A DNA stretch of 64,000 bases from Escherichia coli (GCF_041248615.1 NZ_CP158426.1), one strand, 5' to 3'. Positions 25,325 to 40,712 are shown, counted from the first letter of the stretch. Numbers and translations are program-made. The notes: generated by a model not told the origin, from the letters alone.

Positions 25325-26293
<969 letters not shown>

Positions 26294-26300
26294 CACGAAG

Positions 26301-26326
26301 CCGGAAGAATATTCCGGCTTCGTCAT
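26301..26326. terminator. bidirectional terminator between ybhK and uvrB
   Basis: gaagccggaagaatattccggcttc perfect hairpin between convergent stops. Confidence 0.6.
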
Positions 26327-26330
26327 CTTG

Positions 26331-28352
26331 TCACGACGCGGCAATGAACAATTCACGCAGCTGATGCAACTGGTCACGAATTTGCGCCGCTTCTTCGAAC
26401 TCCAGATTTTGCGCGTGTTGCATCATCAGCCCTTCCAGTTCATGGATTTTCTGCTGCAACGCTTTCGGCGACATATCCATCGGCACATTATCCGGCTCAA
26501 CAATCGGTCGCGATTTTCCTCTGCCCTTCGCTTTGGTTTTGGCAATGTTCTGCCCCAACGCCAGGATATCGACCACTTTCTTGTTCAAGCCTTGCGGCGT
26601 AATGCCGTGTTCCTCGTTGTACTTCTGCTGTTTCTCGCGGCGACGTTCGGTTTCGCCAATCGCTTTCGCCATTGACGGGGTGATCTTATCGCCGTAGAGA
26701 ATCGCTTTACCGTTAACGTTACGCGCCGCACGACCAATAGTCTGGATCAACGAACGTTCGGAACGCAGGAAGCCTTCTTTGTCAGCGTCGAGGATCGCCA
26801 CCAGCGACACTTCCGGCATATCCAGACCTTCGCGCAGTAAGTTGATCCCCACCAGCACGTCGAACTCGCCCAGACGCAAGTCGCGGATGATTTCCATACG
26901 CTCGACGGTGTCGATATCCGAGTGAAGATAACGCACGCGCTCGCCGTGTTCTTCGAGATATTCCGTGAGATCTTCCGCCATCCGCTTGGTCAGAGTTGTA
27001 ACCAGTACGCGTTCGTTAATTGCCGCTCGCTGACGAATCTCCGAAAGAAGATCATCGACCTGTGTCGCCACCGGCCGCACTTCAATTATCGGGTCAAGCA
27101 ATCCGGTTGGACGCACCACCTGATCCACCACATCGCCGCCGGATTTTTCCAGCTCGTAATTACCCGGCGTCGCCGAAACATAGATGGTTTGCGGCGCTAA
27201 TGCTTCGAACTCTTCAAATTTCAGCGGACGGTTATCCAGCGCTGATGGCAGGCGGAAGCCGTACTCCACCAGCGTCTCTTTACGCGCCCGGTCACCGCGA
27301 TACATGCCGCCAATTTGCGGAATGGTGACGTGTGATTCATCGACCACCAGCAGCCCATCGGCAGGCAGGTAATCAAACAGCGTCGGCGGTGGCTCACCCG
27401 GTCCACGACCGGAGAGGAAGCGCGAGTAGTTCTCAATCCCCGAACAGTAGCCCAGCTCGTTCATCATCTCCAGATCAAACTGGGTACGCTGGGTCAGCCG
27501 CTGCTCTTCCAGCAGTTTGTTGTTTTCCAATAGCACTTTACGTCTGGCGGCCAGCTCTTCTTTGATCTCCTCCATCGCCTGGACGATGCGCTCGCGTGGC
27601 GTGACGTAGTGCGTTTTCGGGTAGATGGTAAAACGTGGAATAGTGGAAACAATCTGCCCGGTGAGCGGGTCAAATAACGACAATCGTTCCACTTCCTCGT
27701 CAAACAGCTCCATGCGAAGTGCAATGTCATCCGATTCTGCCGGGAAGATATCAATCACCTCACCACGAACGCGGAAAGTACCACGCTGGAATGCCTGATC
27801 ATTACGAGCGTATTGCAGCTCCGCCAGTCGGCGCAGGATCGCGCGCTGATCGATAATCATGCCGACCGTGAGATGGAGCATCATCTTGAGATATAAATCA
27901 GGATCGCCCAGACCATAAATCGCGGAAACAGAGGCCACTACAACCACATCACGCCGCTCCAGCATCGCTTTGGTGGCGGACAAACGCATCTGTTCAATAT
28001 GTTCGTTAACCGAGGCATCTTTCTCAATGAAGGTGTCGGAACTCGGTACATAGGCTTCCGGCTGATAGTAGTCGTAGTAGGAGACGAAATATTCCACCGC
28101 GTTTTCCGGGAAGAACTCTTTCATTTCGCCATACAGCTGGGCCGCCAGCGTTTTGTTGGGCGCAAGTACCATGGTAGGGCGCTGAAGATCAGCAATGACA
28201 TTGGCAATGGTGAAGGTTTTCCCGGAGCCAGTCACGCCAAGTAACGTCTGGTGCGCCAGGCCATCTTCCAGCCCCTCTTCGAGACGTCGAATCGCCTCTG
28301 GCTGATCGCCAGAAGGTTTAAAAGCGGAATTCAGTTTGAACGGTTTACTCAT
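26331..28352 (-). CDS. uvrB: excinuclease ABC subunit B
   Basis: 673 aa; Walker A GVTGSGKT, helicase motifs, C-terminal UvrC-interaction region. Confidence 0.96.
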
Positions 28353-30356: not shown

Positions 30357-31497
30357 GCAGCACCTCCAGCAGACGGTCGATATCCTGCATTTCATGCGCG
30401 GCGGTTAGTGTTAAGCGCAGTCGCGCAGTACCAGCGGGTACGGTTGGCGGGCGAATCGCCGTGACCCAGCAGCCTTGCTGGCGCAGTTTTTCTGCCAGTT
30501 GTAACGCACGGCTGTTATCACCAACAATCAATGGCTGGATGGCGCTGCATGAATCAGCAAGCGTAAACGGCAAATCCTGTACTCCGGCACGAAAACGCCT
30601 AATGAGTGCCGCCAGTTTTTCGCGCCGTGCATCACCCTCATCACTGCGAATGACCGCCAGCGATGCACGTAATGCCTGCGCCTGAGCGGGCGGCATACTG
30701 GTGCTGTAGATAAGATGGCGGGCGAATTGCAGCAGATAATCCGCCACCGTACTGGAGCAAAGCACCGCTGCCCCGCTGACGCCAAATCCTTTGCCAAAAG
30801 TCACCACCAGCAATTCTGGTTTTACCTTTTGCAGCCAGCAGCTGCCACGCCCCTGCTCCCCGATAACGCCCGTGCCGTGGGCATCATCGACCATCAACCA
30901 GCCATTGTGCTGTTGCGTTACTTGCTGGATTTCCGCCAGTGGCGGACTATCGCCGTCCATGCTGAACACGCCTTCTGTCACCACCAGTTGCTGCCCCGGA
31001 CAGGGGGAAGCAAGCAGTCGCGCCAGATGAGTAACATCGTTATGAACAAAACGGCGAAGCTGCGACGGGCTTAAACTGGCAGCTTCCAGCAATGAGGCGT
31101 GACTCAGCCGATCGGCAACAATACGGTCCTCTTTCGCCGTCATCGCGGTAATAACTGCCTGGTTAGCGGCAAAACCAGAGATAAACAGCAGTGCCCGCGA
31201 ATAGCCCAGCCACTCGGCCAGTTCTTCTTCCAGCGCCTGATGCGCCACGCTATAACCGCTGACGTGACCGGAACCGCCGCTACCGACGCCAAATTGCTCC
31301 GCACTCTGCTTCCAGGCACGGATAATTTGCGGATGATGGCTTAAACCTAAATAATCGTTACTGGAAAAGTTCAGATACTGGCGATCGTCCGCCACCAGCC
31401 AGCGTCCGGCCCCTTGCGCCACTGGATAACGGCGACGCAGGGCGTCGGCAGCACGCCGCGCATCGAGCGCCGCGTTGATTTTATCCTGCCAGCTCAT
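30343..31497 (-). CDS. bioF: 8-amino-7-oxononanoate synthase BioF
   Basis: 384 aa PLP-dependent aminotransferase class II. Confidence 0.93.
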
Positions 31498-32534
31498 AGT
31501 GCTGCCGCGTTGTAATATTCGTCAGTGTCCGGGGTCATCAGTGCCTGCTCCAGACGCTGCTGTTGTTCGTTATCCCCTGCCAGCACGGCAGTTTGCTGCG
31601 GATTTAGCCCCAGTTTGCGGAACAGTTGCAGGTCTTTATCTTCTTCCGGATTCGGCGTGGTTAGCAGTTTGCAACCGTAGAAAATCGAGTTTGCGCCAGC
31701 CATAAAGCACATTGCCTGAGTCTGTTCGTTCATCTGCTCGCGTCCGGCAGAAAGGCGCACGTAAGAGGTCGGCATCATGATCCGCGCTACGGCAATGGTG
31801 CGAATAAAATCAAAGGCATCGACATCATCGTTATCCGCCAGTGGAGTGCCTTTCACCTTCACCAGCATGTTGATTGGCACGCTTTCCGGCGGCGTCGGCA
31901 GGTTTGCCAGTTGCAGTAATAATCCGGCGCGATCTTTTACCGTTTCGCCTAAACCCACAATGCCACCTGAGCAGACTTTGATCCCGGCATCGCGCACTTT
32001 TTCCAGCGTATCAAGGCGTTCCTGATAAGTACGTGTGGTGATGATATTGCCGTAAAACTCCGGCGAGGTGTCGAGGTTGTGGTTGTAGTAATCCAGCCCG
32101 GCGTTCGCAAGGCGCTGCGCCTGAGATTCACTCAACGTACCCAGCGTCATACACGCCTCCAGGCCCATCGCTTTTACTCCCTGCACCATTTGTTCCAGGT
32201 AGGGCATATCGCGTTCGTGGGGATTCTTCCACGCCGCGCCCATGCAGAAGCGCGTCGATCCTGCCGCTTTCGCTTTGCGCGCCGACTCCAGCACCTGTTC
32301 AACTTCCATCAACCGCTCGGCTTCCAGCCCGGTTTTGTAGCGCGAGCTTTGCGGGCAGTATTTGCAATCTTCCGGACAAGCTCCGGTCTTAATTGACAGC
32401 AAAGTGCTGACCTGCACCTGACGTGGATCGAAATGCTGACGATGCACCTGCTGCGCTTCAAACAGCAGATCCAGCAACGGTTTTTCAAATAATTCTGTGA
32501 CTTGCGACAATGTCCAGCGTGGGCGGTGAGCCAT
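31494..32534 (-). CDS. bioB: biotin synthase BioB (radical SAM)
   Basis: 346 aa; CPEDCKYC radical-SAM motif. Confidence 0.95.
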
Positions 32535-32574
32535 GGGGCTTCTCCAAAACGTGTTTTTTGTTGTTAATTCGGTG

Positions 32575-32614
32575 TAGACTCGTAAACCTAAATCTTTTCA
32601 ATTTGGTTTACAAG
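32575..32614. promoter_or_regulatory. bio operator (BirA binding site) with divergent bioA/bioBFCD promoters
   Basis: imperfect palindrome cgtaaacctaaatcttttcaatttggtttacaag between divergent bioB and bioA starts. Confidence 0.8.
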
Positions 32615-32620
32615 TCGATT

Positions 32621-33910
32621 ATGACAACGGACGATCTTGCCTTTGACCAACGCCATATCTGGCACCCATACACATCCATGACCTCCCCGCTACCGGTTTA
32701 TCCGGTGGCGAGCGCCGAAGGTTGCGAGCTAATTTTGTCTGACGGCAGACGCCTGGTTGACGGTATGTCGTCCTGGTGGGCGGCGATCCACGGTTACAAT
32801 CACCCGCAGCTTAATGCGGCTATGAAGTCGCAAATTGATGCCATGTCGCATGTGATGTTTGGCGGTATCACTCATGCGCCAGCCATTGAGCTGTGCCGCA
32901 AACTGGTGGCGATGACGCCGCAACCGCTGGAATGCGTTTTTCTCGCGGACTCCGGTTCCGTAGCGGTGGAAGTGGCGATGAAAATGGCGTTGCAGTACTG
33001 GCAAGCCAAAGGCGAAGCGCGCCAGCGTTTTCTGACCTTCCGCAATGGTTATCATGGCGATACCTTTGGCGCGATGTCGGTGTGCGATCCGGATAACTCA
33101 ATGCACAGTCTGTGGAAAGGCTATCTGCCAGAAAACTTGTTTGCTCCCGCCCCGCAAAGCCGCATGGATGGTGAATGGGATGAACGCGATATGGTGGGCT
33201 TTGCCCGCCTGATGGCGGCGCATCGTCATGAAATCGCCGCAGTGATCATTGAACCGATTGTCCAGGGCGCAGGTGGGATGCGCATTTACCATCCGGAATG
33301 GTTAAAACGAATCCGCAAAATGTGCGATCGTGAAGGTATCTTGCTGATTGCCGACGAGATCGCCACCGGATTTGGTCGTACCGGTAAACTGTTTGCCTGT
33401 GAACATGCAGAAATCGCGCCGGACATTTTGTGCCTCGGTAAAGCCTTAACTGGCGGCACGATGACCCTTTCCGCCACGCTCACCACGCGCGAGGTTGCGG
33501 AAACCATCAGTAACGGCGAAGCCGGCTGCTTTATGCATGGGCCAACTTTTATGGGCAATCCGCTGGCCTGCGCAGCAGCAAACGCCAGCCTGGCGATTCT
33601 TGAATCTGGCGACTGGCAGCAGCAGGTGGCGGCTATTGAAGCGCAGCTACGCGAGCAACTTGCCCCCGCCTGTGACGCCGAAATGGTTGCCGATGTGCGC
33701 GTACTGGGGGCAATCGGTGTGGTCGAAACCACTCGTCCGGTGAATATGGCAGCGCTGCAAAAATTCTTTGTCGAACAGGGTGTCTGGATCCGGCCTTTTG
33801 GCAAACTGATTTACCTGATGCCGCCCTATATTATTCTCCCGCAACAGTTGCAGCGTCTGACCGCAGCGGTTAATCGTGCGGTGCAGGATGAAACATTTTT
33901 TTGCCAATAA
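32621..33910 (+). CDS. bioA: adenosylmethionine-8-amino-7-oxononanoate aminotransferase BioA
   Basis: 429 aa; ORF 32510..33910 trimmed to ATG 32621 ([17 protein letters not shown]). Confidence 0.94.
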
Positions 33911-33968: not shown

Positions 33969-34445
33969 ATGAAACTCATCAGTAATGATCTGCGCGATGG
34001 CGATAAGTTGCCGCATCGTCATGTCTTTAACGGCATGGGTTACGATGGCGATAATATTTCACCGCATCTGGCGTGGGATGATGTTCCTGCGGGAACGAAA
34101 AGTTTTGTTGTCACCTGCTTTGACCCGGACGCGCCAACCGGCTCCGGCTGGTGGCACTGGGTCGTTGTTAACTTACCCGCTGATACCCGCGTATTACCGC
34201 AAGGGTTTGGCTCTGGTCTGGTAGCAATGCCTGACGGCGTTTTGCAGACGCGTACCGACTTTGGTAAAGCCGGATACGGTGGCGCAGCGCCGCCGAAAGG
34301 CGAAACCCATCGCTACATTTTTACCGTTCACGCGCTGGATGTAGAACGTATTGATGTCGATGAAGGTGCCAGCGGCGCGATGGTCGGGTTTAACGTCCAT
34401 TTCCACTCTCTGGCAAGCGCCTCGATTACTGCGATGTTTAGTTAA
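33969..34445 (+). CDS. ybhB: PEBP/YbhB-family protein
   Basis: 158 aa; PEBP fold motifs; adjacent to bioA as in K-12. Confidence 0.9.
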   Translation: MKLISNDLRDGDKLPHRHVFNGMGYDGDNISPHLAWDDVPAGTKSFVVTCFDPDAPTGSGWWHWVVVNLPADTRVLPQGFGSGLVAMPDGVLQTRTDFGKAGYGGAAPPKGETHRYIFTVHALDVERIDVDEGASGAMVGFNVHFHSLASASITAMFS

Positions 34446-34535
34446 TCACTCTGCCAGATGGCGCTATGCCATCTGGTATCACTTAAAGGTATTAAAAACA
34501 ACTTTTTGTCTTTTTACCTTCCCGTTTCGCTCAAG

Positions 34536-34550
34536 TTAGTATAAAAAAGC
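34536..34550. other. lambda att core (O region) at prophage-chromosome junction (attR-type: P arm - core - B')
   Basis: ttagtataaaaaagc = reverse complement of the 15-bp lambda core GCTTTTTTATACTAA; the lower-coordinate flank matches chromosomal attB (..CTTGAGCGAAACGGGAAGG) and the higher-coordinate flank matches the lambda attP P-arm. Confidence 0.85.
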
Positions 34551-34700
34551 TGAACGAGAAACGTAAATGATATAAATATCAATATATTAAATTAGATTTT
34601 GCATAAAAAACAGACTACAAAATACTGTAAAACACAACATATGCAGTCACTATGAATCAACTACTTAGATGATATTAGTGACCTGTAACAGAGCATTAGC
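34551..34700. promoter_or_regulatory. lambda-like attP P-arm (Int arm-type/IHF/Xis/Fis site region)
   Basis: AT-rich sequence (..CGTTTCTCGTTCA next to the core, ..TGCAAAATCTAATTTAATATATTGATATTTATATCATTTACG.. as reverse complement) matching the lambda P arm from memory. Confidence 0.65.
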
Positions 34701-35227
34701 GCAAGGTGATTTTTTGTCCTCTTGCGCTAATTTTTTGTCAACTCACTGGGTTAGTTGAATTTACAACCATGCTCAGTATCTCGATAAGCGCAGGGAGATG
34801 ATGCAGTGGTGGGCGGACTGGCTTGATGAAAGTGTGCTGTAATCCTCATATCCAACCTAAGAGATATGCACAATTTTGTGAATAAGATATTGAGAATTAG
34901 CAAAAGTTTTATTTTGCGTATCATCAATTCAGAATACAAAGTCACATGCTAATGTTCTGCATTGGTATCTTTTGCTTATCCATGTCTACATTATCGCCAA
35001 AATAATAGGTTTTGCCTATCAATTATTTGAATTACTTCCATGAAATTATAACGCACTTGTAATTTTTGATTATTTTTACCTCTCAAGTGTTTTGTTTCTT
35101 CTATCTCTTTGTATTTTTAGCGAAAGTATGCCATATTGCATTCTAATATAACGTGGCGTTGTTTCTGTTTAATGATTTAAATAGTTCAACATAATATTTG
35201 CTAACAAATTATATCCAAGCAAATCAT

Positions 35228-36373
35228 ATGATATTATCATTACAATATATTAGAGGAATAGCATCATTACTTGTTGTTTTATTCCACTTCAGATTCTTGC
35301 TAAATGAGCACTACTCTCAGAAAGATTTGGGTGACCTATTATTTGGGAATGGGCTGTCTGGAGTTGATATATTCTTCATATTAAGTGGATTTATCATCGT
35401 ATACTCAACAAGAAAGAAGGAAGTTAATGATACTTTCTCATTCTCAATTAGAAGAATATTTAGAATATACCCATTACTAATCACATGCTGTTGCATGTAT
35501 TACATAATAAACACTCAATTTCTAACCTATGCTACAGTTGAAAACTTTAGAACCTTACTTATTTCCATCATTCCATTAAATATAAACTGGAATGAAGGCG
35601 CTCCATTCTTTGCCTATAATCTTTTGTACCCGGCCTGGACGATAACATATGAAATTGGTTTCTATGTTTTTTTCGGGGTATCAATGTCTATTTCGCATAA
35701 ATACAGAACAATTATCTGTTCTGTTTTTATAATCATGGTGGTCTCATTTACACAATACTATGTAAATGGAAATATATCATTTTCAGGTGATGTTAGTGCA
35801 GGGTTATTTACAGATAACTGGTTATTAGGATATACAAATGTTATTACATCTCCAATGATGTATGAATTCGTTATTGGGATGTTTCTTTCTGAAATATTTA
35901 CAAACATCAACGAAAGCAAAAGTATTAAAAGGATACTTTCAAAGTATTCGCTTCAAATACTATGGATTTCATGTGGTATATCCATAATATTATTCATTAT
36001 CCAGCGACCTTATGGGCATGGATTGAATGGATTTGGGACTATGGCGATGATACTTATTGCATCATCATTAGTATATGAATACTGCAATATAACACCCAAA
36101 ATAAAAATATTTAATTTCCTTGGTGAAATATCATATTCTTTATATCTAATTCACGCCGTGATACTTGCTTTGTTCTTCTATTATAAGGCAGACCTTGCTG
36201 AAATTGGCATAACTGGTGGATTTTCTGTGTTTTTTTCCTTGGTTATTATCTCAATAACTGCATCATATCCAATATATATTCTCATTGAAAAGCCAATGAT
36301 AAATATAGGTAAACGTTTAATTGACAAGAGAAATAAGAGCATTAACAAAAAAGAAACCGAAATAACAGCGTGA
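35228..36373 (+). CDS. acyltransferase family 3 membrane protein (O-antigen/OafA-type acetyltransferase-like)
   Basis: about 381 aa, 10+ TM; N-terminal YIRGIASLLVVLFH and FFILSGF motifs typical of acyltransferase_3; AT-rich; ORF 35198 (TTG) trimmed to ATG 35228. Confidence 0.75.
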   Translation: MILSLQYIRGIASLLVVLFHFRFLLNEHYSQKDLGDLLFGNGLSGVDIFFILSGFIIVYSTRKKEVNDTFSFSIRRIFRIYPLLITCCCMYYIINTQFLTYATVENFRTLLISIIPLNINWNEGAPFFAYNLLYPAWTITYEIGFYVFFGVSMSISHKYRTIICSVFIIMVVSFTQYYVNGNISFSGDVSAGLFTDNWLLGYTNVITSPMMYEFVIGMFLSEIFTNINESKSIKRILSKYSLQILWISCGISIILFIIQRPYGHGLNGFGTMAMILIASSLVYEYCNITPKIKIFNFLGEISYSLYLIHAVILALFFYYKADLAEIGITGGFSVFFSLVIISITASYPIYILIEKPMINIGKRLIDKRNKSINKKETEITA

Positions 36374-36410
36374 TAATGACAAAGTTAGTGCCGGGATACC
36401 CCGGCACTAT

Positions 36411-37748
36411 TTAATCTATTTCGTAAGTGACAGTGATTATCACTTCTGCATTATTACCCAAAACATTTTGATATATATTCATATTACCTGATAATGTAGT
36501 TGCTCCAGTAAGAGTTATATAACTACTATTTGCATCAACCCTTGGAAGTAAAGCGGTAACTGCTGTTGTTAAATTATTATAGTAGCCTGTACTTCCAACA
36601 TATGCAGCTTTATTGCTTGATACATATGGTAACCCTCCAATTCTGAAACCATCTCCTGACCCAATTAAAGTTATACCAAGGTGACATGTTGCCGTTATGA
36701 TATTGCCACTCCTGACATAATTTCCTTTCTGCTGATAATATGTGGCATTACCACCTACAGTCGGAATCCAAACTCCAGTTTCTATATCACCACATGACCA
36801 GTCTTCTGCTGTTGTTAGTTTTCCAGTAACAATAAATTTACTTCCACCACCAGAATTATAAGGAACAAAAATTGGATTTATTCTTGCATAAGTGTTACCG
36901 GTCTGCTCATTAAGATCATTTCTATCAATAAGAACTTGACCATTTTCGAAGTTTGAAATCTGGCAGTCTGTTACACTCCAGTCTCTTAACTTCACATCAG
37001 CATCCATGACACCAATAAGCTTACCAGCATTACCAATTTTTTCTTTATGCATATTTACATACACATTTCTTACCGTAACAGACTGAGGGAACAGATAATT
37101 AGCAGGATTAGTTTTATCACTTAAAACAGATATTACCCAAGGTCTGTATTGAGTACTTACTTCACAATAAAATCCATCAATAAGCGTTCCAGATGCCGCT
37201 GGCCCAAGTAGTATTCCACCTGTAGAGTGATGCGCACTACCTCCAATTACTCTCCCCTTAACGCAGTTAATATAGGCAAAACATCCTAAATCTTGATTGT
37301 CATAGGCTGACATAGCACAGTCTCTAACTGTTACTCGAGAATTTCCTCCGTCATAAGCTGAGCCATCAGTTTTCTTACCAACTATTGATATAAAGTTACC
37401 AATAGCAACTCGACTATAAAAAGTTTTTTTATAACACCCCTCAATTAAAATATCCCAGTTTTCAAACTGAGCATATATATCATAAATGCTGGCATTCCCA
37501 TAATCTATGAAATCACAATATCTTATTTTCGGCGTATAAACGGCACTTTTTATCTTTATACCACCTAATGCTCTCTCCCCACCTGTGAATCTAATGCCAG
37601 TAACGGTGTAATCGCCTTGATAGAAATTATCTGCGGTAGGATTATTTTCGTCAGAATCATCACCCAATATAATAGCAAATTCACTCCCTGAATAATTAAT
37701 TGTCGCCCCCTTATTTGAATATATAGTTACAGGTCTTATAAACTCCAA
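36411..37748 (-). CDS. beta-helix (pectate-lyase-like) protein, probable tailspike/tail-fibre distal fragment; no ATG start
   Basis: 445 aa, Asn/Gly/Ser/Thr-rich with repeated short beta-strand pattern; first codon in frame after the stop is TTG, with no ATG or N-terminal adaptor domain; AT-rich. Confidence 0.5.
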   Translation of the reverse strand: MEFIRPVTIYSNKGATINYSGSEFAIILGDDSDENNPTADNFYQGDYTVTGIRFTGGERALGGIKIKSAVYTPKIRYCDFIDYGNASIYDIYAQFENWDILIEGCYKKTFYSRVAIGNFISIVGKKTDGSAYDGGNSRVTVRDCAMSAYDNQDLGCFAYINCVKGRVIGGSAHHSTGGILLGPAASGTLIDGFYCEVSTQYRPWVISVLSDKTNPANYLFPQSVTVRNVYVNMHKEKIGNAGKLIGVMDADVKLRDWSVTDCQISNFENGQVLIDRNDLNEQTGNTYARINPIFVPYNSGGGSKFIVTGKLTTAEDWSCGDIETGVWIPTVGGNATYYQQKGNYVRSGNIITATCHLGITLIGSGDGFRIGGLPYVSSNKAAYVGSTGYYNNLTTAVTALLPRVDANSSYITLTGATTLSGNMNIYQNVLGNNAEVIITVTYEID

Positions 37749-38140
37749 AGAATTACTTATCAGATACTCTCCATAAGGAAAAAAATCTCAACTGGTGGTG
37801 AGTACTTTGGTCTGGAGTTTACGTAATTCATAATATTGATTACACCAACATCATAGATAATCGCCACCTTCTGGCGAGGAGCTCCTGATGCAATTAATCG
37901 CCAGGCCTACGCCCATTATTCATGGGTAAATTTTGGACGGAGCCCCCAATTCCATCCTCAATTCTCCCTCGCACTGAGGAGTAGTAAGTGCAATTATTTA
38001 AAAAATCGCAAACAGAATATTATCATTTATTCTTGCATTCTGTTAATTAAAACCACACATAAAAACGTTGATACTTGATAAGTAAGTAGAGTATTATTAA
38101 TGGTTTTAATAACGAACCTTTTAATCATGAGAAGCCTCAA

Positions 38141-39166
38141 ATGACTAGTACCAATAACATAACAAGAAAAAAAATGGATGGAGTAACAATCTTAAGATTT
38201 ATAGCTGCTTTTTATGTGTTTATTTTTCACATTAACATGAGAGTCCCCGTTAATTTTGGAGAGCTTATTAATAAAACCATTAGCAATGGCGTCATTGGCA
38301 TGAGTATTTTCTTCATGCTTTCTGGTTTTGTTTTGACTTATAATTACTATGGTTCCTTGTCAAACAATTACTTCAGGAAGCGAATAGCAAGAATATTTCC
38401 AGCCTATTTATTTTGTGGGCTTTTAACCCTCCCATTTTTGTTATCCAGCGATGCAAGCTTTTTAAAAATGATTGCAAGCATATTCTTGTTTGTTACTGGA
38501 ATGCAATCATGGATTTATCAGACCTTCGATTTTTGGAATTTTAGCGGTACCTGGTCAATATCAGTGGAATTGTTTTTTTATGCCCTGTTTCCATTTTTGA
38601 TAAAAAACATCAACAAAAACAATGTAATTTATGTTTTACTTTTTTCATATTTATCTTCAGCATTATTAATCCCATTATCTGATATAATTCAGGGACCTGT
38701 AGTTTGGTCCGTATATTACGCAACTCCAATATACAGGTTACCAGAATTTGTGGTGGGCGTCTGTATCGCAATACTTTTTTTAAATGGCTATCGTGTTAAC
38801 CATTATACATGGCTATTAAGCATTTTATTATTTCTGTATGCTACCACCCAGCAAAACAATAACTCCATGGGGGTGAACTATCTCACAATTCCTGCGATAT
38901 CAATTATGTTATTGCACCTGGCAAAAATCAACATCAAAAACAACATTGCAAACAGAGCGATCATTTACTTTGGAGATATAAGTTATTCGTTTTATTTGAT
39001 GCAATTACCTATATTATATTACCTGGATCATAATAAAAACTCATTTATTCTTAACTATGGTCTTTTTAGCTGGCTTGTACTTTTTGTTATTAATACTGCA
39101 ATGGCATCATTATCTTATCACTTTCTGGAGAAGAACGATAAAATCAGAAAAATAATTACATCCTGA
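38141..39166 (+). CDS. acyltransferase family 3 membrane protein (O-antigen acetyltransferase Oac-like)
   Basis: 341 aa, multi-TM; ILRFIAAFYVFIFH and FFMLSGFVLTYN motifs; ATG start; very AT-rich. Confidence 0.78.
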   Translation: MTSTNNITRKKMDGVTILRFIAAFYVFIFHINMRVPVNFGELINKTISNGVIGMSIFFMLSGFVLTYNYYGSLSNNYFRKRIARIFPAYLFCGLLTLPFLLSSDASFLKMIASIFLFVTGMQSWIYQTFDFWNFSGTWSISVELFFYALFPFLIKNINKNNVIYVLLFSYLSSALLIPLSDIIQGPVVWSVYYATPIYRLPEFVVGVCIAILFLNGYRVNHYTWLLSILLFLYATTQQNNNSMGVNYLTIPAISIMLLHLAKINIKNNIANRAIIYFGDISYSFYLMQLPILYYLDHNKNSFILNYGLFSWLVLFVINTAMASLSYHFLEKNDKIRKIITS

Positions 39167-39170
39167 TTTA

Positions 39171-39190
39171 TTAGGGGGGTACCCCCCTAA
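39171..39190. terminator. bidirectional hairpin terminator between acyltransferase and tail-fibre assembly gene
   Basis: perfect palindrome ttaggggggtacccccctaa flanked by T/A runs, between convergent stops (39166 and 39208). Confidence 0.65.
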
Positions 39191-39207
39191 TAATACACCA
39201 CATAATT

Positions 39208-39603
39208 TCAACGTATTATCTCTGGCCTTTCTGGCCAGGTTATTTCTGGAATTAAGGACAAATCCACTGACATTAAATTATTAACATATTCCTTCCATAA
39301 CAAAAGATTGTTCTTGTTATTTTCACTTATAATACCGAGTAACAAATCTGACTGCCAGTTCATAATTAAACCATTAGCACTATCCAGCAGACACTGTCTT
39401 TCATTCTCTGCCTCACGAAGTAATTCATCATGTGTTTTTGGCGGCTGCGTAGGTGACGAAAGCTTTCCCTTATCATAGAACCAACCAATTCTTACATTAT
39501 CGGATACAGGTATAACTAACGCATTAGTTGGTTGCCAGGCACTCTCACCATCCCATACCGCAATATTGGTAACAACACCATTTTCTATAACGGCATAGTT
39601 CAT
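39208..39603 (-). CDS. tail fibre assembly protein (Tfa-like chaperone)
   Basis: ORF 39208..39618 trimmed to MNYAVIENGVVTNIAVWDG.. (typical Tfa N-terminus); ATG overlaps tail-fibre stop. Confidence 0.8.
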   Translation of the reverse strand: MNYAVIENGVVTNIAVWDGESAWQPTNALVIPVSDNVRIGWFYDKGKLSSPTQPPKTHDELLREAENERQCLLDSANGLIMNWQSDLLLGIISENNKNNLLLWKEYVNNLMSVDLSLIPEITWPERPEIIR

Positions 39604-40712
39604 CACGCATACTCCCAAATGATTGCAATACCAGCCATTCCGCTACCTCCGGCACGCTGCTGCGTCGCTCCACCGTAGACACAGGCACCACCGCCTCCAC
39701 CACCATGGCCATTAGCATTAATACCTTCGCCTACAATGGCTTGTGACCCAGCCCCCGCACCAAGGATTGAATCGCCGCCAGGCCCCCCCATCGCCAGACT
39801 GCCGGAATACCGAACGCCTGGTGAGCTATAACCGCTTCCAGACCCGATAATATTTGCACCTGTAAATCCCGGCTCAGTATATGCTCCATACGGACCAACA
39901 ACCCCTGGAGCAGTTCCTTCAGCAAGAACATCCCCACCAAGGCCACCTTTGGCAATTATGGTATTGCCGAAAGAGGTTGTTCCCCCGGGAGCACCAACCG
40001 ACGCACTTGCACCAGTGCCACCATATCCGATTGTCACAGTAGTTACGGTTGGATTATCCACGCGAGCTTTAACATACTCCCCGGACATCCCCCCGCCACC
40101 ACAAGCAGCATTATTGGGATAACCGACCTGACAACCACCACCGGCCCCACCACCACCAACAATTTCAACAATAATAAATTTTGTGCCTTTTGTCGGAGTG
40201 TATGTACCTGAGCTTTTAAACACCTGACACTGTATAAGCCTCCCGGAGCCATCTCCCAAACCAAGGTATGCGAGAATGTCATCAATAGTATTTTTGCCGA
40301 TAATATCACGGCCTACCTTAGTGAGGTCGGTCTGCGCAGCCTTATCTGTGCCAGTGAAATACGGTAGCTTATTTGCACCTGTCGCCAGTCCGGCCAGAGC
40401 CGTCAACGTGGCATCAAGCGCCTGATAATCCTTACCGAATGCAGAAGACATTTTGGTAATGAATCCATTCAGGTCGCCATCATCCAATACATCCAGTCCG
40501 CTTTTGTTTGCTGTGTACTGTGCAAGTGCTGCAGCAATAAAGCTGGCCTGCCGAATAACCTTATTGACTTGCGCACTGGAGGCTTTCCCTGCTGTAAATC
40601 CGGATAAAAGCGCGGGCAACGCTTCCCATTCCTCCTGCGATATAACATTGGCATTTCGATCCGTTGCAAACGCTTTAAAGTCATTTTTCGCCATCAGAGT
40701 AATACTCCCCAT
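39603..40712 (-). CDS. tail fibre protein (Mu S/P2 H-like N-terminus, Gly-rich C-terminal domain)
   Basis: 369 aa; conserved N-terminal MAKNDFKAF..SQEEWEALP..; C-terminal glycine-rich repeats. Confidence 0.8.
   Translation of the reverse strand: MGSITLMAKNDFKAFATDRNANVISQEEWEALPALLSGFTAGKASSAQVNKVIRQASFIAAALAQYTANKSGLDVLDDGDLNGFITKMSSAFGKDYQALDATLTALAGLATGANKLPYFTGTDKAAQTDLTKVGRDIIGKNTIDDILAYLGLGDGSGRLIQCQVFKSSGTYTPTKGTKFIIVEIVGGGGAGGGCQVGYPNNAACGGGGMSGEYVKARVDNPTVTTVTIGYGGTGASASVGAPGGTTSFGNTIIAKGGLGGDVLAEGTAPGVVGPYGAYTEPGFTGANIIGSGSGYSSPGVRYSGSLAMGGPGGDSILGAGAGSQAIVGEGINANGHGGGGGGACVYGGATQQRAGGSGMAGIAIIWEYA

Follow-up and report, generated by a model that had tools for sequence, protein, structure and literature searches.

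A candidate O7 O-antigen acetylation island with two acyltransferase genes at the attR end of an Escherichia coli prophage

What do two acyltransferase genes do at the very end of a prophage, and how did they come to flank the remains of a tailspike gene? This question is raised by an island in a 64,000-nt stretch of Escherichia coli DNA (the window, to whose full length all coordinates refer), which matches the chromosome of E. coli NRZ14408 (NZ_LT599825.1) at 100% identity. The island occupies the attR, b-region end of a prophage integrated at the lambda attachment site (att-lambda), and carries two genes of acyltransferase family 3 (AT3), designated here AT3-1 and AT3-2. Judging from our comparative analysis, they would most likely serve to O-acetylate the O7 O-antigen, with lysogenic conversion and superinfection exclusion as the result. 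Concerning its origin, the island probably arose by fusion of the cargo ends of two temperate phages, from each of which would have come a module comprising a receptor-binding protein and an O-antigen acyltransferase. The features of the island and the adjoining tail genes are as follows.

34757..34842, plus strand: 3' relic of an IntS/Sf6-type integrase gene, the last 27 codons (IYNHAQYLDKRREMMQWWADWLDESVL, then the stop), by translation match
35228..36373, plus strand: AT3-1, intact, 381-residue AT3-only (Oac-like) membrane acyltransferase, by PF01757, phrog_3333 and motifs
36386..36409, no strand: bidirectional terminator hairpin separating AT3-1 from the convergent tailspike gene (10-pair stem, 7 of the pairs GC, detected on both strands)
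36411..37857, minus strand: P22/Sf6-type tailspike pseudogene, by tblastn, a full-length allele and a beta-helix model
37841..37857, no strand: junction of the podophage block and the AT3-2 cassette, by the ends of similarity
37858..38140, no strand: upstream region of AT3-2 with a helix-turn-helix pseudogene remnant and promoter-like sites, common to the IAI39, T309.Ta3 and 8178 prophages
38141..39166, plus strand: AT3-2, intact, 341-residue AT3-only membrane acyltransferase, by PF01757, phrog_3333 and motifs
39168..39193, no strand: 26-bp perfect palindrome TTATTAGGGGGGTACCCCCCTAATAA separating AT3-2 from the convergent tfa gene, by opposite-strand self-match
39208..39603, minus strand: Tfa, tail-fibre assembly chaperone, by phrog_188, phrog_3792 and phrog_136 ('tail fiber assembly') and RefSeq
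39603..40712, minus strand: tail fibre of 369 residues, by PHROG tail-fibre matches

Two acyltransferases of the Oac type

A first-pass annotation of the window had proposed two plus-strand acyltransferase-3 genes with motifs of the OafA/Oac type, and we confirmed both points. AT3-1 matches PF01757 with an E value of 1.1e-30 (residues 3-350) and AT3-2 with 4.7e-27 (residues 14-317), and both match phrog_3333 'O-acetyltransferase' (1.5e-71 and 2e-40, respectively). The motifs R9-X10-H20, FFILSG and RRIFR were recognized in AT3-1, and R-X10-H, FFMLSG and RIAR in AT3-2. When the two proteins were aligned with the Oac of phage Sf6 and an AT3-SGNH protein, R9, H20, F49, S53, G54, R76, R79, W137, E142, S302 and Y303 were invariant. 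These residues cover the R-X10-H, FFxxSG (FFxLSG in both proteins) and RxxR motifs. An SGNH domain was not found in either protein; PF01757 stands alone in both, and both end shortly after the AT3 domain. The two were thus assigned to the AT3-only, Oac-type enzymes. Enzymes of the AT3-only class, Sf6 Oac among them, span the inner membrane several times; in a crude Kyte-Doolittle scan, AT3-1 and AT3-2 each showed seven to eight partly overlapping hydrophobic peaks, the family topology comprising about ten helices.

The same annotation had regarded the genes as two divergent copies, a view that we could not maintain. The proteins share about 31% identity over no more than 83 residues, on which ground a gene duplication was rejected, and AT3-1 is accompanied by a P22/Sf6-type tailspike and AT3-2 by a myovirus fibre tip and Tfa.

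Database searches placed neither enzyme beside a close phage relative. With tblastn against 50,697 phage records, no close relative of AT3-1 or AT3-2 was found, the best matches being 39% (a Pseudomonas phage) and 28% (TL-2011b) identical, respectively. None of the five proteins tested matched an NCBIfam model, PADLOC-DB gave no match for three island proteins at E ≤ 0.01, and a PDB sequence search with AT3-1 returned nothing at E ≤ 1. Outside a near-identical E. coli family, the nearest relatives of AT3-2 are 54-69% identical, uncharacterised and unnamed, some of them labelled 'peptidoglycan/LPS O-acetylase OafA/YrhL' at JGI. Ahead of AT3-2 lies a promoter-like sequence, TTGATA-18-TATTAT (38068-38097), identified by its consensus match only.

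Two phage blocks and their junction

The left block of the island, 34757-37854, matches a P22-like prophage of the O7 strain 2018-05-5CC with 98.6% identity over 3100 bp, the match starting within the integrase gene. That prophage resides at tRNA-Arg (argW) in the order intS, AT3-1 and, converging on AT3-1, the gene of a 649-residue tailspike, with homologues of HNH, Arc, gp16, gp20 and gp7 beyond the tailspike. Its AT3-1 copy is 99.4% identical to that of the window. The translation of the integrase relic, labelled a partial pseudogene by RefSeq, is identical to the C terminus of the IntS of this prophage and near-identical to that of Sf6 Int. From these sequence matches, we identify the block (block A) as a 3.1-kb piece of an Sf6/P22-type podophage consisting of integrase relic, AT3-1, terminator and tailspike, and the argW prophage of 2018-05-5CC as an intact parent.

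The integrase relic, AT3-1, hairpin and tailspike remnant reproduce the order and orientation of the conversion module of Sf6, in which the tailspike gene (gene 14) faces, across a terminator, oac (gene 15) and int (gene 16); the terminator annotated in Sf6 has a position equivalent to 36386..36409. As this layout is common to Sf6 and the 2018-05-5CC prophage, AT3-1 can be taken as the positional equivalent of oac. The resemblance extends to the C terminus of the integrase relic, which is nearly that of Sf6 Int, and to the motifs that AT3-1 shares with Oac. On the other hand, the identity of AT3-1 to Oac, measured over 192 residues, is only about 24%, and the window tailspike is unrelated in sequence to that of Sf6, resembling it in fold alone. 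The window module is also fragmentary, with int and tailspike dead, it is located at att-lambda inside a different phage, and the host O-antigen is O7 instead of the Y type of S. flexneri. In other P22-like prophages, the slot of AT3-1 is filled by the gene of a 666-residue AT3-SGNH protein, which adjoins int and converges on a 648-residue tailspike gene.

On the opposite strand between the acyltransferase genes is a 445-codon open reading frame (ORF) with a TTG start (36411-37748), previously noted as a beta-helix-like, tailspike-like fragment. This description held, and the ORF was found to be the 3' part of a tailspike pseudogene. It has no Pfam, PHROG or NCBIfam match of its own, so that its identity came solely from homologues. 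The product is 82% identical to residues 193-648 of a 648-residue P22-type 'phage tailspike protein', which like its relatives carries the domains PF09008 (head-binding) and PF12708, 41-60% identical to many relatives of about 500-750 residues, and 56% identical to the St11Ph5 phage tailspike. In a tblastn search with the 648-residue protein, the alignment fell into two frames, one with residues 193-648 (37784-36417) and the other with residues 170-194 (37852-37778). As the tailspike residues are split over two frames, a 1-base frameshift must be present in the T-run near 37780. The similarity stops at about residue 170, the approximately 169 N-terminal codons for the head-binding domain being gone, and the 649-residue allele of 2018-05-5CC is continuous across both the frameshift and the truncation point. 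An AlphaFold model of the ORF product (21 homologues) consisted almost entirely of beta-strand, with a mean pLDDT of 85.9. Its best fold matches in the PDB were the beta-helix tailspikes of Det7, HK620, Sf6 and P22, with a Foldseek probability of 1.00 for Det7, HK620 and Sf6. A beta-helix body is thus predicted; PF09008 and an uninterrupted frame are absent. Owing to the loss of the head-binding domain and the frameshift, we regard the gene as a pseudogene and the ORF as the 3' remnant of a dead tailspike gene without its virion-attachment domain. The ORF as an intact gene was rejected, since the tailspike similarity runs on upstream in the other frame. In addition, the segment 36885-37244 (tailspike residues 373-492) has a single mismatch in 120 residues to the 648-residue protein and its flanks are about 70-85% identical, which points to recent mosaic recombination inside the beta-helix.

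The right block (block B), 37841-40275, is found with 98% identity in prophages of IAI39 and T309.Ta3, where the match ends at 40275, and with 99.9% identity in strain 8178. The respective locations are ssrA (IAI39), tRNA-Pro/yejM (T309.Ta3) and pphA/yebW (8178), all outside att-lambda, and in all three PGAP annotates a helix-turn-helix pseudogene upstream of AT3-2. The block takes in the C-terminal 224 codons of the tail fibre (39603-40275), its glycine-rich, receptor-binding distal part. IAI39 has a different N-terminal fibre segment joined to these codons, and the resulting frame of 316 codons is open. The tail of the window prophage is of the myovirus type according to RefSeq (baseplate J, DUF2612, DUF3383 and DUF3277 proteins), and the IAI39 and T309.Ta3 prophages have baseplate genes of another type (YmfQ, gp46, baseplate protein V). 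Because a unit of 98% identity is common to prophages with different baseplates, tail-fibre tip, Tfa and AT3-2 can be considered to travel as one 2.4-kb cassette. The mouse-derived O7 strains 8178 (NZ_CP151934.1), DEF2 and FEA3 each contain two copies of AT3-2 in two different prophages, indicating that one host can hold the conversion cassette twice. PGAP splits the tail fibre (39603-40712) into a 'glycine-rich domain-containing protein' and a pseudogene fragment despite its continuous 369-codon ORF; the split is probably an annotation artefact arising from the glycine-rich domain.

The two blocks meet at a single junction. Tailspike similarity ends at 37854, and similarity to the AT3-2 cassette of IAI39, T309.Ta3 and 8178 starts at 37841-37842. 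Within the overlap the parents are similar and not identical, ACCAACATCAT in the window corresponding to ACCGCAGCATCAT in the tailspike gene. The cassettes of the other prophages run 65-110 bp further, through the helix-turn-helix pseudogene, to their own att regions. A single illegitimate recombination or deletion at this short similar patch would have joined blocks A and B, the likeliest route being between two lambda-att-using prophages that resided, or recombined, at att-lambda. One parent would have been a lambdoid prophage of the myovirus type whose end consisted of tail fibre, tfa, AT3-2 and att, and the other a P22-like element with int', AT3-1 and tailspike next to a lambda-type P arm. 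The event may have taken place in a tandem lysogen at att-lambda, or when a phage entered a cell with a resident remnant. Repeated exchange of a receptor-modification and receptor-recognition cassette had been suggested for this site. The linkage of the two functions in a cassette is borne out; repeated exchange at one site is not, as there is one junction, at 37841-37857.

The O7 association and the probable substrate

We surveyed 5426 complete E. coli genomes, scoring the island as present when at least 80% of 34500-39700 was found. The whole island occurs in 49 genomes. AT3-1 occurs in 50, one of which (2018-05-5CC) is without AT3-2, and AT3-2 in 65, at several prophage sites. The O7 polymerase gene wzy was detected in 96. 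The overlap was obtained from joined searches, in which the union of AT3-2 and wzy comprised 98 genomes and that of AT3-1 and wzy 97. O7 wzy is thus present in 63 of the 65 genomes with AT3-2 (65 + 96 - 98) and in 49 of the 50 with AT3-1. The only AT3-1 exception is TUM10008, from which it follows that the window strain carries O7 wzy. Uncorrected Fisher tests gave p values of about 1e-119 for AT3-2 and 1e-91 for AT3-1, which are overstated, many of the genomes being clonal derivatives of E. coli B.

AT3-2 is present at no fewer than four independent chromosomal sites, each in a genome with O7 wzy. Its hosts are phylogenetically separate and include the O7:K1 strains IAI39 and CE10, the mouse strain 8178, the horse strain T309.Ta3 and the B lineage. 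AT3-1 is found at two sites, both in O7 strains. A partial member of the AT3-2 family is listed by one source under 'Escherichia coli O7:H7'. BL21(DE3)-type laboratory strains, which matched at the place of wzy only, account for many of the O7 genomes that are without AT3-2; DE3 occupies att-lambda in BL21(DE3) derivatives (PMC4395058).

Taking into account that genes and motifs are intact, that each gene comes with a separate upstream region and a terminator of its own, that the partners are polysaccharide-directed receptor-binding proteins and that the genes are nearly restricted to O7 genomes, the most probable substrate is in our view the O7 O-antigen. If the two enzymes act as Sf6 Oac does, each would carry the acetyl group of cytoplasmic acetyl-CoA across the inner membrane. 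At the periplasmic face, acetyl would be placed on a sugar of the O7-type O-antigen, either the O-unit or the polymer, before ligation to lipid A-core. Lysogens would thereby change serotype, and phages dependent on unmodified O7, among them relatives of the donor phages, would be prevented from adsorbing.

Several points weigh against this assignment. To our knowledge, the published O7 repeat unit carries no O-acetyl group, and a report of O-acetylated O7 antigen was not found in the searchable literature. Neither protein has an equivalog match in NCBIfam, and neither is near a characterised acetylase, identity to Sf6 Oac being just 24-40% in local stretches. The promoter-like sites are no more numerous than in shuffled sequence (26 sites against 27.6 expected). 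TUM10008 and Es_ST80_L1_NDM have AT3-2 without O7 wzy, the O7 association is inflated by the clonal laboratory derivatives of E. coli B, and it could reflect only the host range of the carrier phages. E. coli B, which is without O-antigen, also keeps both genes intact. This was judged neutral, because the loss of its O-antigen is recent and the intact genes are uninformative either way.

A more specific proposal, which we put forward tentatively and would place a little below an even chance, is that AT3-2, Tfa and the fibre tip form an O7-specific, co-mobilised 'key plus lock-changer' cassette and that AT3-1 is a second O7 acetylase of different position specificity left by the podophage. Together they would create chemically undescribed O7 sub-serotypes, and E. 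coli B and BL21 would hold two latent O-antigen acetylases. If this is the case, the latent enzymes of E. coli B/BL21 would act once O7 synthesis is restored.

Other explanations were considered. The enzymes might act on another envelope glycan, such as enterobacterial common antigen, colanic acid or other capsule, osmoregulated periplasmic glucans or peptidoglycan, with the O7 link reflecting carrier-phage host range only. PF01757 spans many substrates, the Pfam and PHROG matches are substrate-neutral, an equivalog-level NCBIfam match is lacking and the nearest AT3-2 relatives bear generic names, all of which leave room for such an activity. However, each AT3 gene adjoins and moves with a receptor-binding protein gene, as oac does in Sf6, and the closest folds to the tailspike are phage tailspikes that bind or cleave polysaccharide. 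AT3-2 is moreover present in O7:K1, O7:H4 and B-lineage strains, all with O7 wzy, and we consider a different glycan unlikely.

Slightly less probable still is that the island is inert baggage, with AT3-1 orphaned by the deletion of its podophage and one or both acyltransferase genes kept silent, for instance as AT-rich DNA subject to xenogeneic silencing, and not yet decayed. The neighbouring tailspike and integrase are indeed pseudogene relics, the AT3 genes persist in E. coli B although it has no O-antigen, and no promoter has statistical support. Furthermore, all 50 AT3-1 copies are at least 99% identical and provide no time depth for showing purifying selection. Against this, the AT3 reading frames are full length with complete catalytic motifs, whereas the adjacent tailspike is already deleted and frameshifted. 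AT3-2 is 97-100% conserved across independent prophage contexts with an intact Tfa and an open fibre frame, and each AT3 gene has its own upstream region and dedicated terminator.

That the 445-codon ORF encodes a functional stand-alone protein, for instance a free O-antigen-binding or -cleaving beta-helix, is very improbable: the frame survives and its predicted beta-helix is confidently folded (pLDDT 85.9), yet it opens at a TTG right after the T-run frameshift, tailspike similarity continues upstream in the other frame and stops at the recombination junction, the head-binding domain is gone while the intact allele and relatives of 616-746 residues have N-terminal domains, and only the divergent AT3-2 control region lies upstream.

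The island is phage cargo of an ordinary, well-known kind. As far as we could find, the enzymes, the O7 association and the exact fusion of two modules are functionally undescribed in the literature; searches on the proteins by RefSeq accession, and on the prophage genes of B strains, returned no functional account of the island acyltransferases. Phage-borne O-antigen acetylases alter serotype, vaccine epitopes and phage susceptibility. The locus offers two uncharacterised acetylase candidates tied to O7, a group to which O7:K1 strains of neonatal meningitis and the E. coli B ancestor belong, and is relevant to restoration of O7 in B strains, O7 glyco-engineering and O7-targeted phages or vaccines. 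It also gives a view, at the level of base pairs, of a receptor-binding module and a receptor-modifying gene co-travelling between unrelated prophages, and of a second such module stranded as a fossil.

Relation to known systems and the att-lambda setting

The combination at attB-lambda had been thought undescribed. The sequence itself is known: the island is 99.8% identical in REL606, BL21 and ATCC 11303 (9 differences in 5.2 kb), where it forms the bio-side end of lambda-B, the published 12.1-kb prophage of E. coli B (PMC4395058). The two prophages share the same int (WP_000533643.1), xis, terminase small subunit and att-lambda site. They differ in that the NRZ14408 prophage is about 42 kb and apparently near-complete, with just two frameshifted accessory genes annotated, and lambda-B is a deleted remnant. 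In E. coli B, whose IS1-disrupted O-antigen cluster is O7-type with wzx and wzy of the O7 family, the island proteins are annotated only as 'acyltransferase family protein' and 'hypothetical protein', and our results account for this unannotated part of lambda-B in BL21 and REL606. The REL606 annotation begins AT3-2 at the internal Met12. A phase-variable A8 run was ruled out as the source of this difference, since the run is identical in REL606 and the sole indel lies in the P arm. In REL606, positions 25616-26374 of the extracted stretch contain a pseudogene annotated by PGAP as 'anti-CBASS protein Acb1 family protein', beside a truncated tail fibre and left by the deletion of head and tail genes.

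Among other O-antigen acetyltransferases, Salmonella OafA and OafB (GtrC family II), which are AT3-SGNH enzymes, share R-X10-H, FFxxSG and RxxR in the AT3 domain with AT3-1 and AT3-2, which differ in having no SGNH domain. The temperate E. coli phage phiV10 of O157:H7 has an AT3 O-acetyltransferase conversion gene. TL-2011b, also a temperate E. coli phage with an AT3 O-acetyltransferase, is the best phage match to AT3-2. Identity to AT3-2 is nonetheless only 28% (TL-2011b), and TL-2011b and phiV10 are of another phage type, without a second acetylase or a tailspike relic. The tailspikes of P22 (gp9), HK620, Sf6 and St11Ph5 (G7C-like) resemble the window tailspike in the right-handed beta-helix predicted by our model, St11Ph5 also in sequence (56% identity); the window copy differs in lacking the PF09008 head-binding domain and in being frameshifted.

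The bio-side boundary of the prophage comprises the following features.

31494-32534, minus strand: bioB
32510-33910, plus strand: bioA
33969-34445, plus strand: ybhB
34537..34551, no strand: lambda att core TTAGTATAAAAAAGC (reverse complement of GCTTTTTTATACTAA), the attR junction adjoining ybhB, read from the sequence
34552..34756, no strand: lambda-type P arm with sib/tI-side sequence, on the attP side of the b region, by similarity to lambda

As the att core and then the P arm follow bioB, bioA and ybhB, the island is located at attR, at the b-region end. The 15-bp core and P arm on the bio side are accompanied by lambda-type int/xis beside ybhC at the other end. The bases of phage 434 that match the core are annotated 'O core of attP', and 434 has a terminator annotated at the place matching 34552..34756. 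The reverse complement of the P arm is 97% identical to lambda 27534-27742, and its identity with 434, PhiR70_1 and vB_EcoP-720R6 is 86-90%. vB_EcoP-720R6 is a P22-like prophage at att-lambda beside ybhB, with a tailspike gene adjoining the same P arm/attR. A C-terminal integrase fossil of about 27 codons also lies beside the lambda-type P arm in phage 434 (~1722-1800; IYNHAQYLYKRREMMQWWVGWLDEKV), and sequence matches suggest its presence in PhiR70_1, mEp332 and vB_EcoP-720R6. The fossil may mark a shared recombination hotspot joining lambda-type att and Sf6-type conversion modules.

Two further features described at the outset, an AT-rich block of foreign cargo next to att and a perfect hairpin closing it, were both found. 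The GC content is 0.29-0.39 over 34.5-39.2 kb, compared with 0.47-0.57 in both flanks, and GGGGGGTACCCCCC at 39174-39187 is the centre of the 26-bp palindrome, which is a probable bidirectional terminator. According to RefSeq, the prophage extends over about 42 kb to xis/int beside ybhC (record positions 3590204-3632476, ending at about 76.9 kb in window numbering), and includes lambda-type cI/cro/cII, O/P-type replication genes, nin, Q and lysis genes. Genes for tRNA-Thr and tRNA-Asn are located between the Q antiterminator and the holin gene, at about 61842-61997 of the window (RefSeq, coordinates converted from the record).

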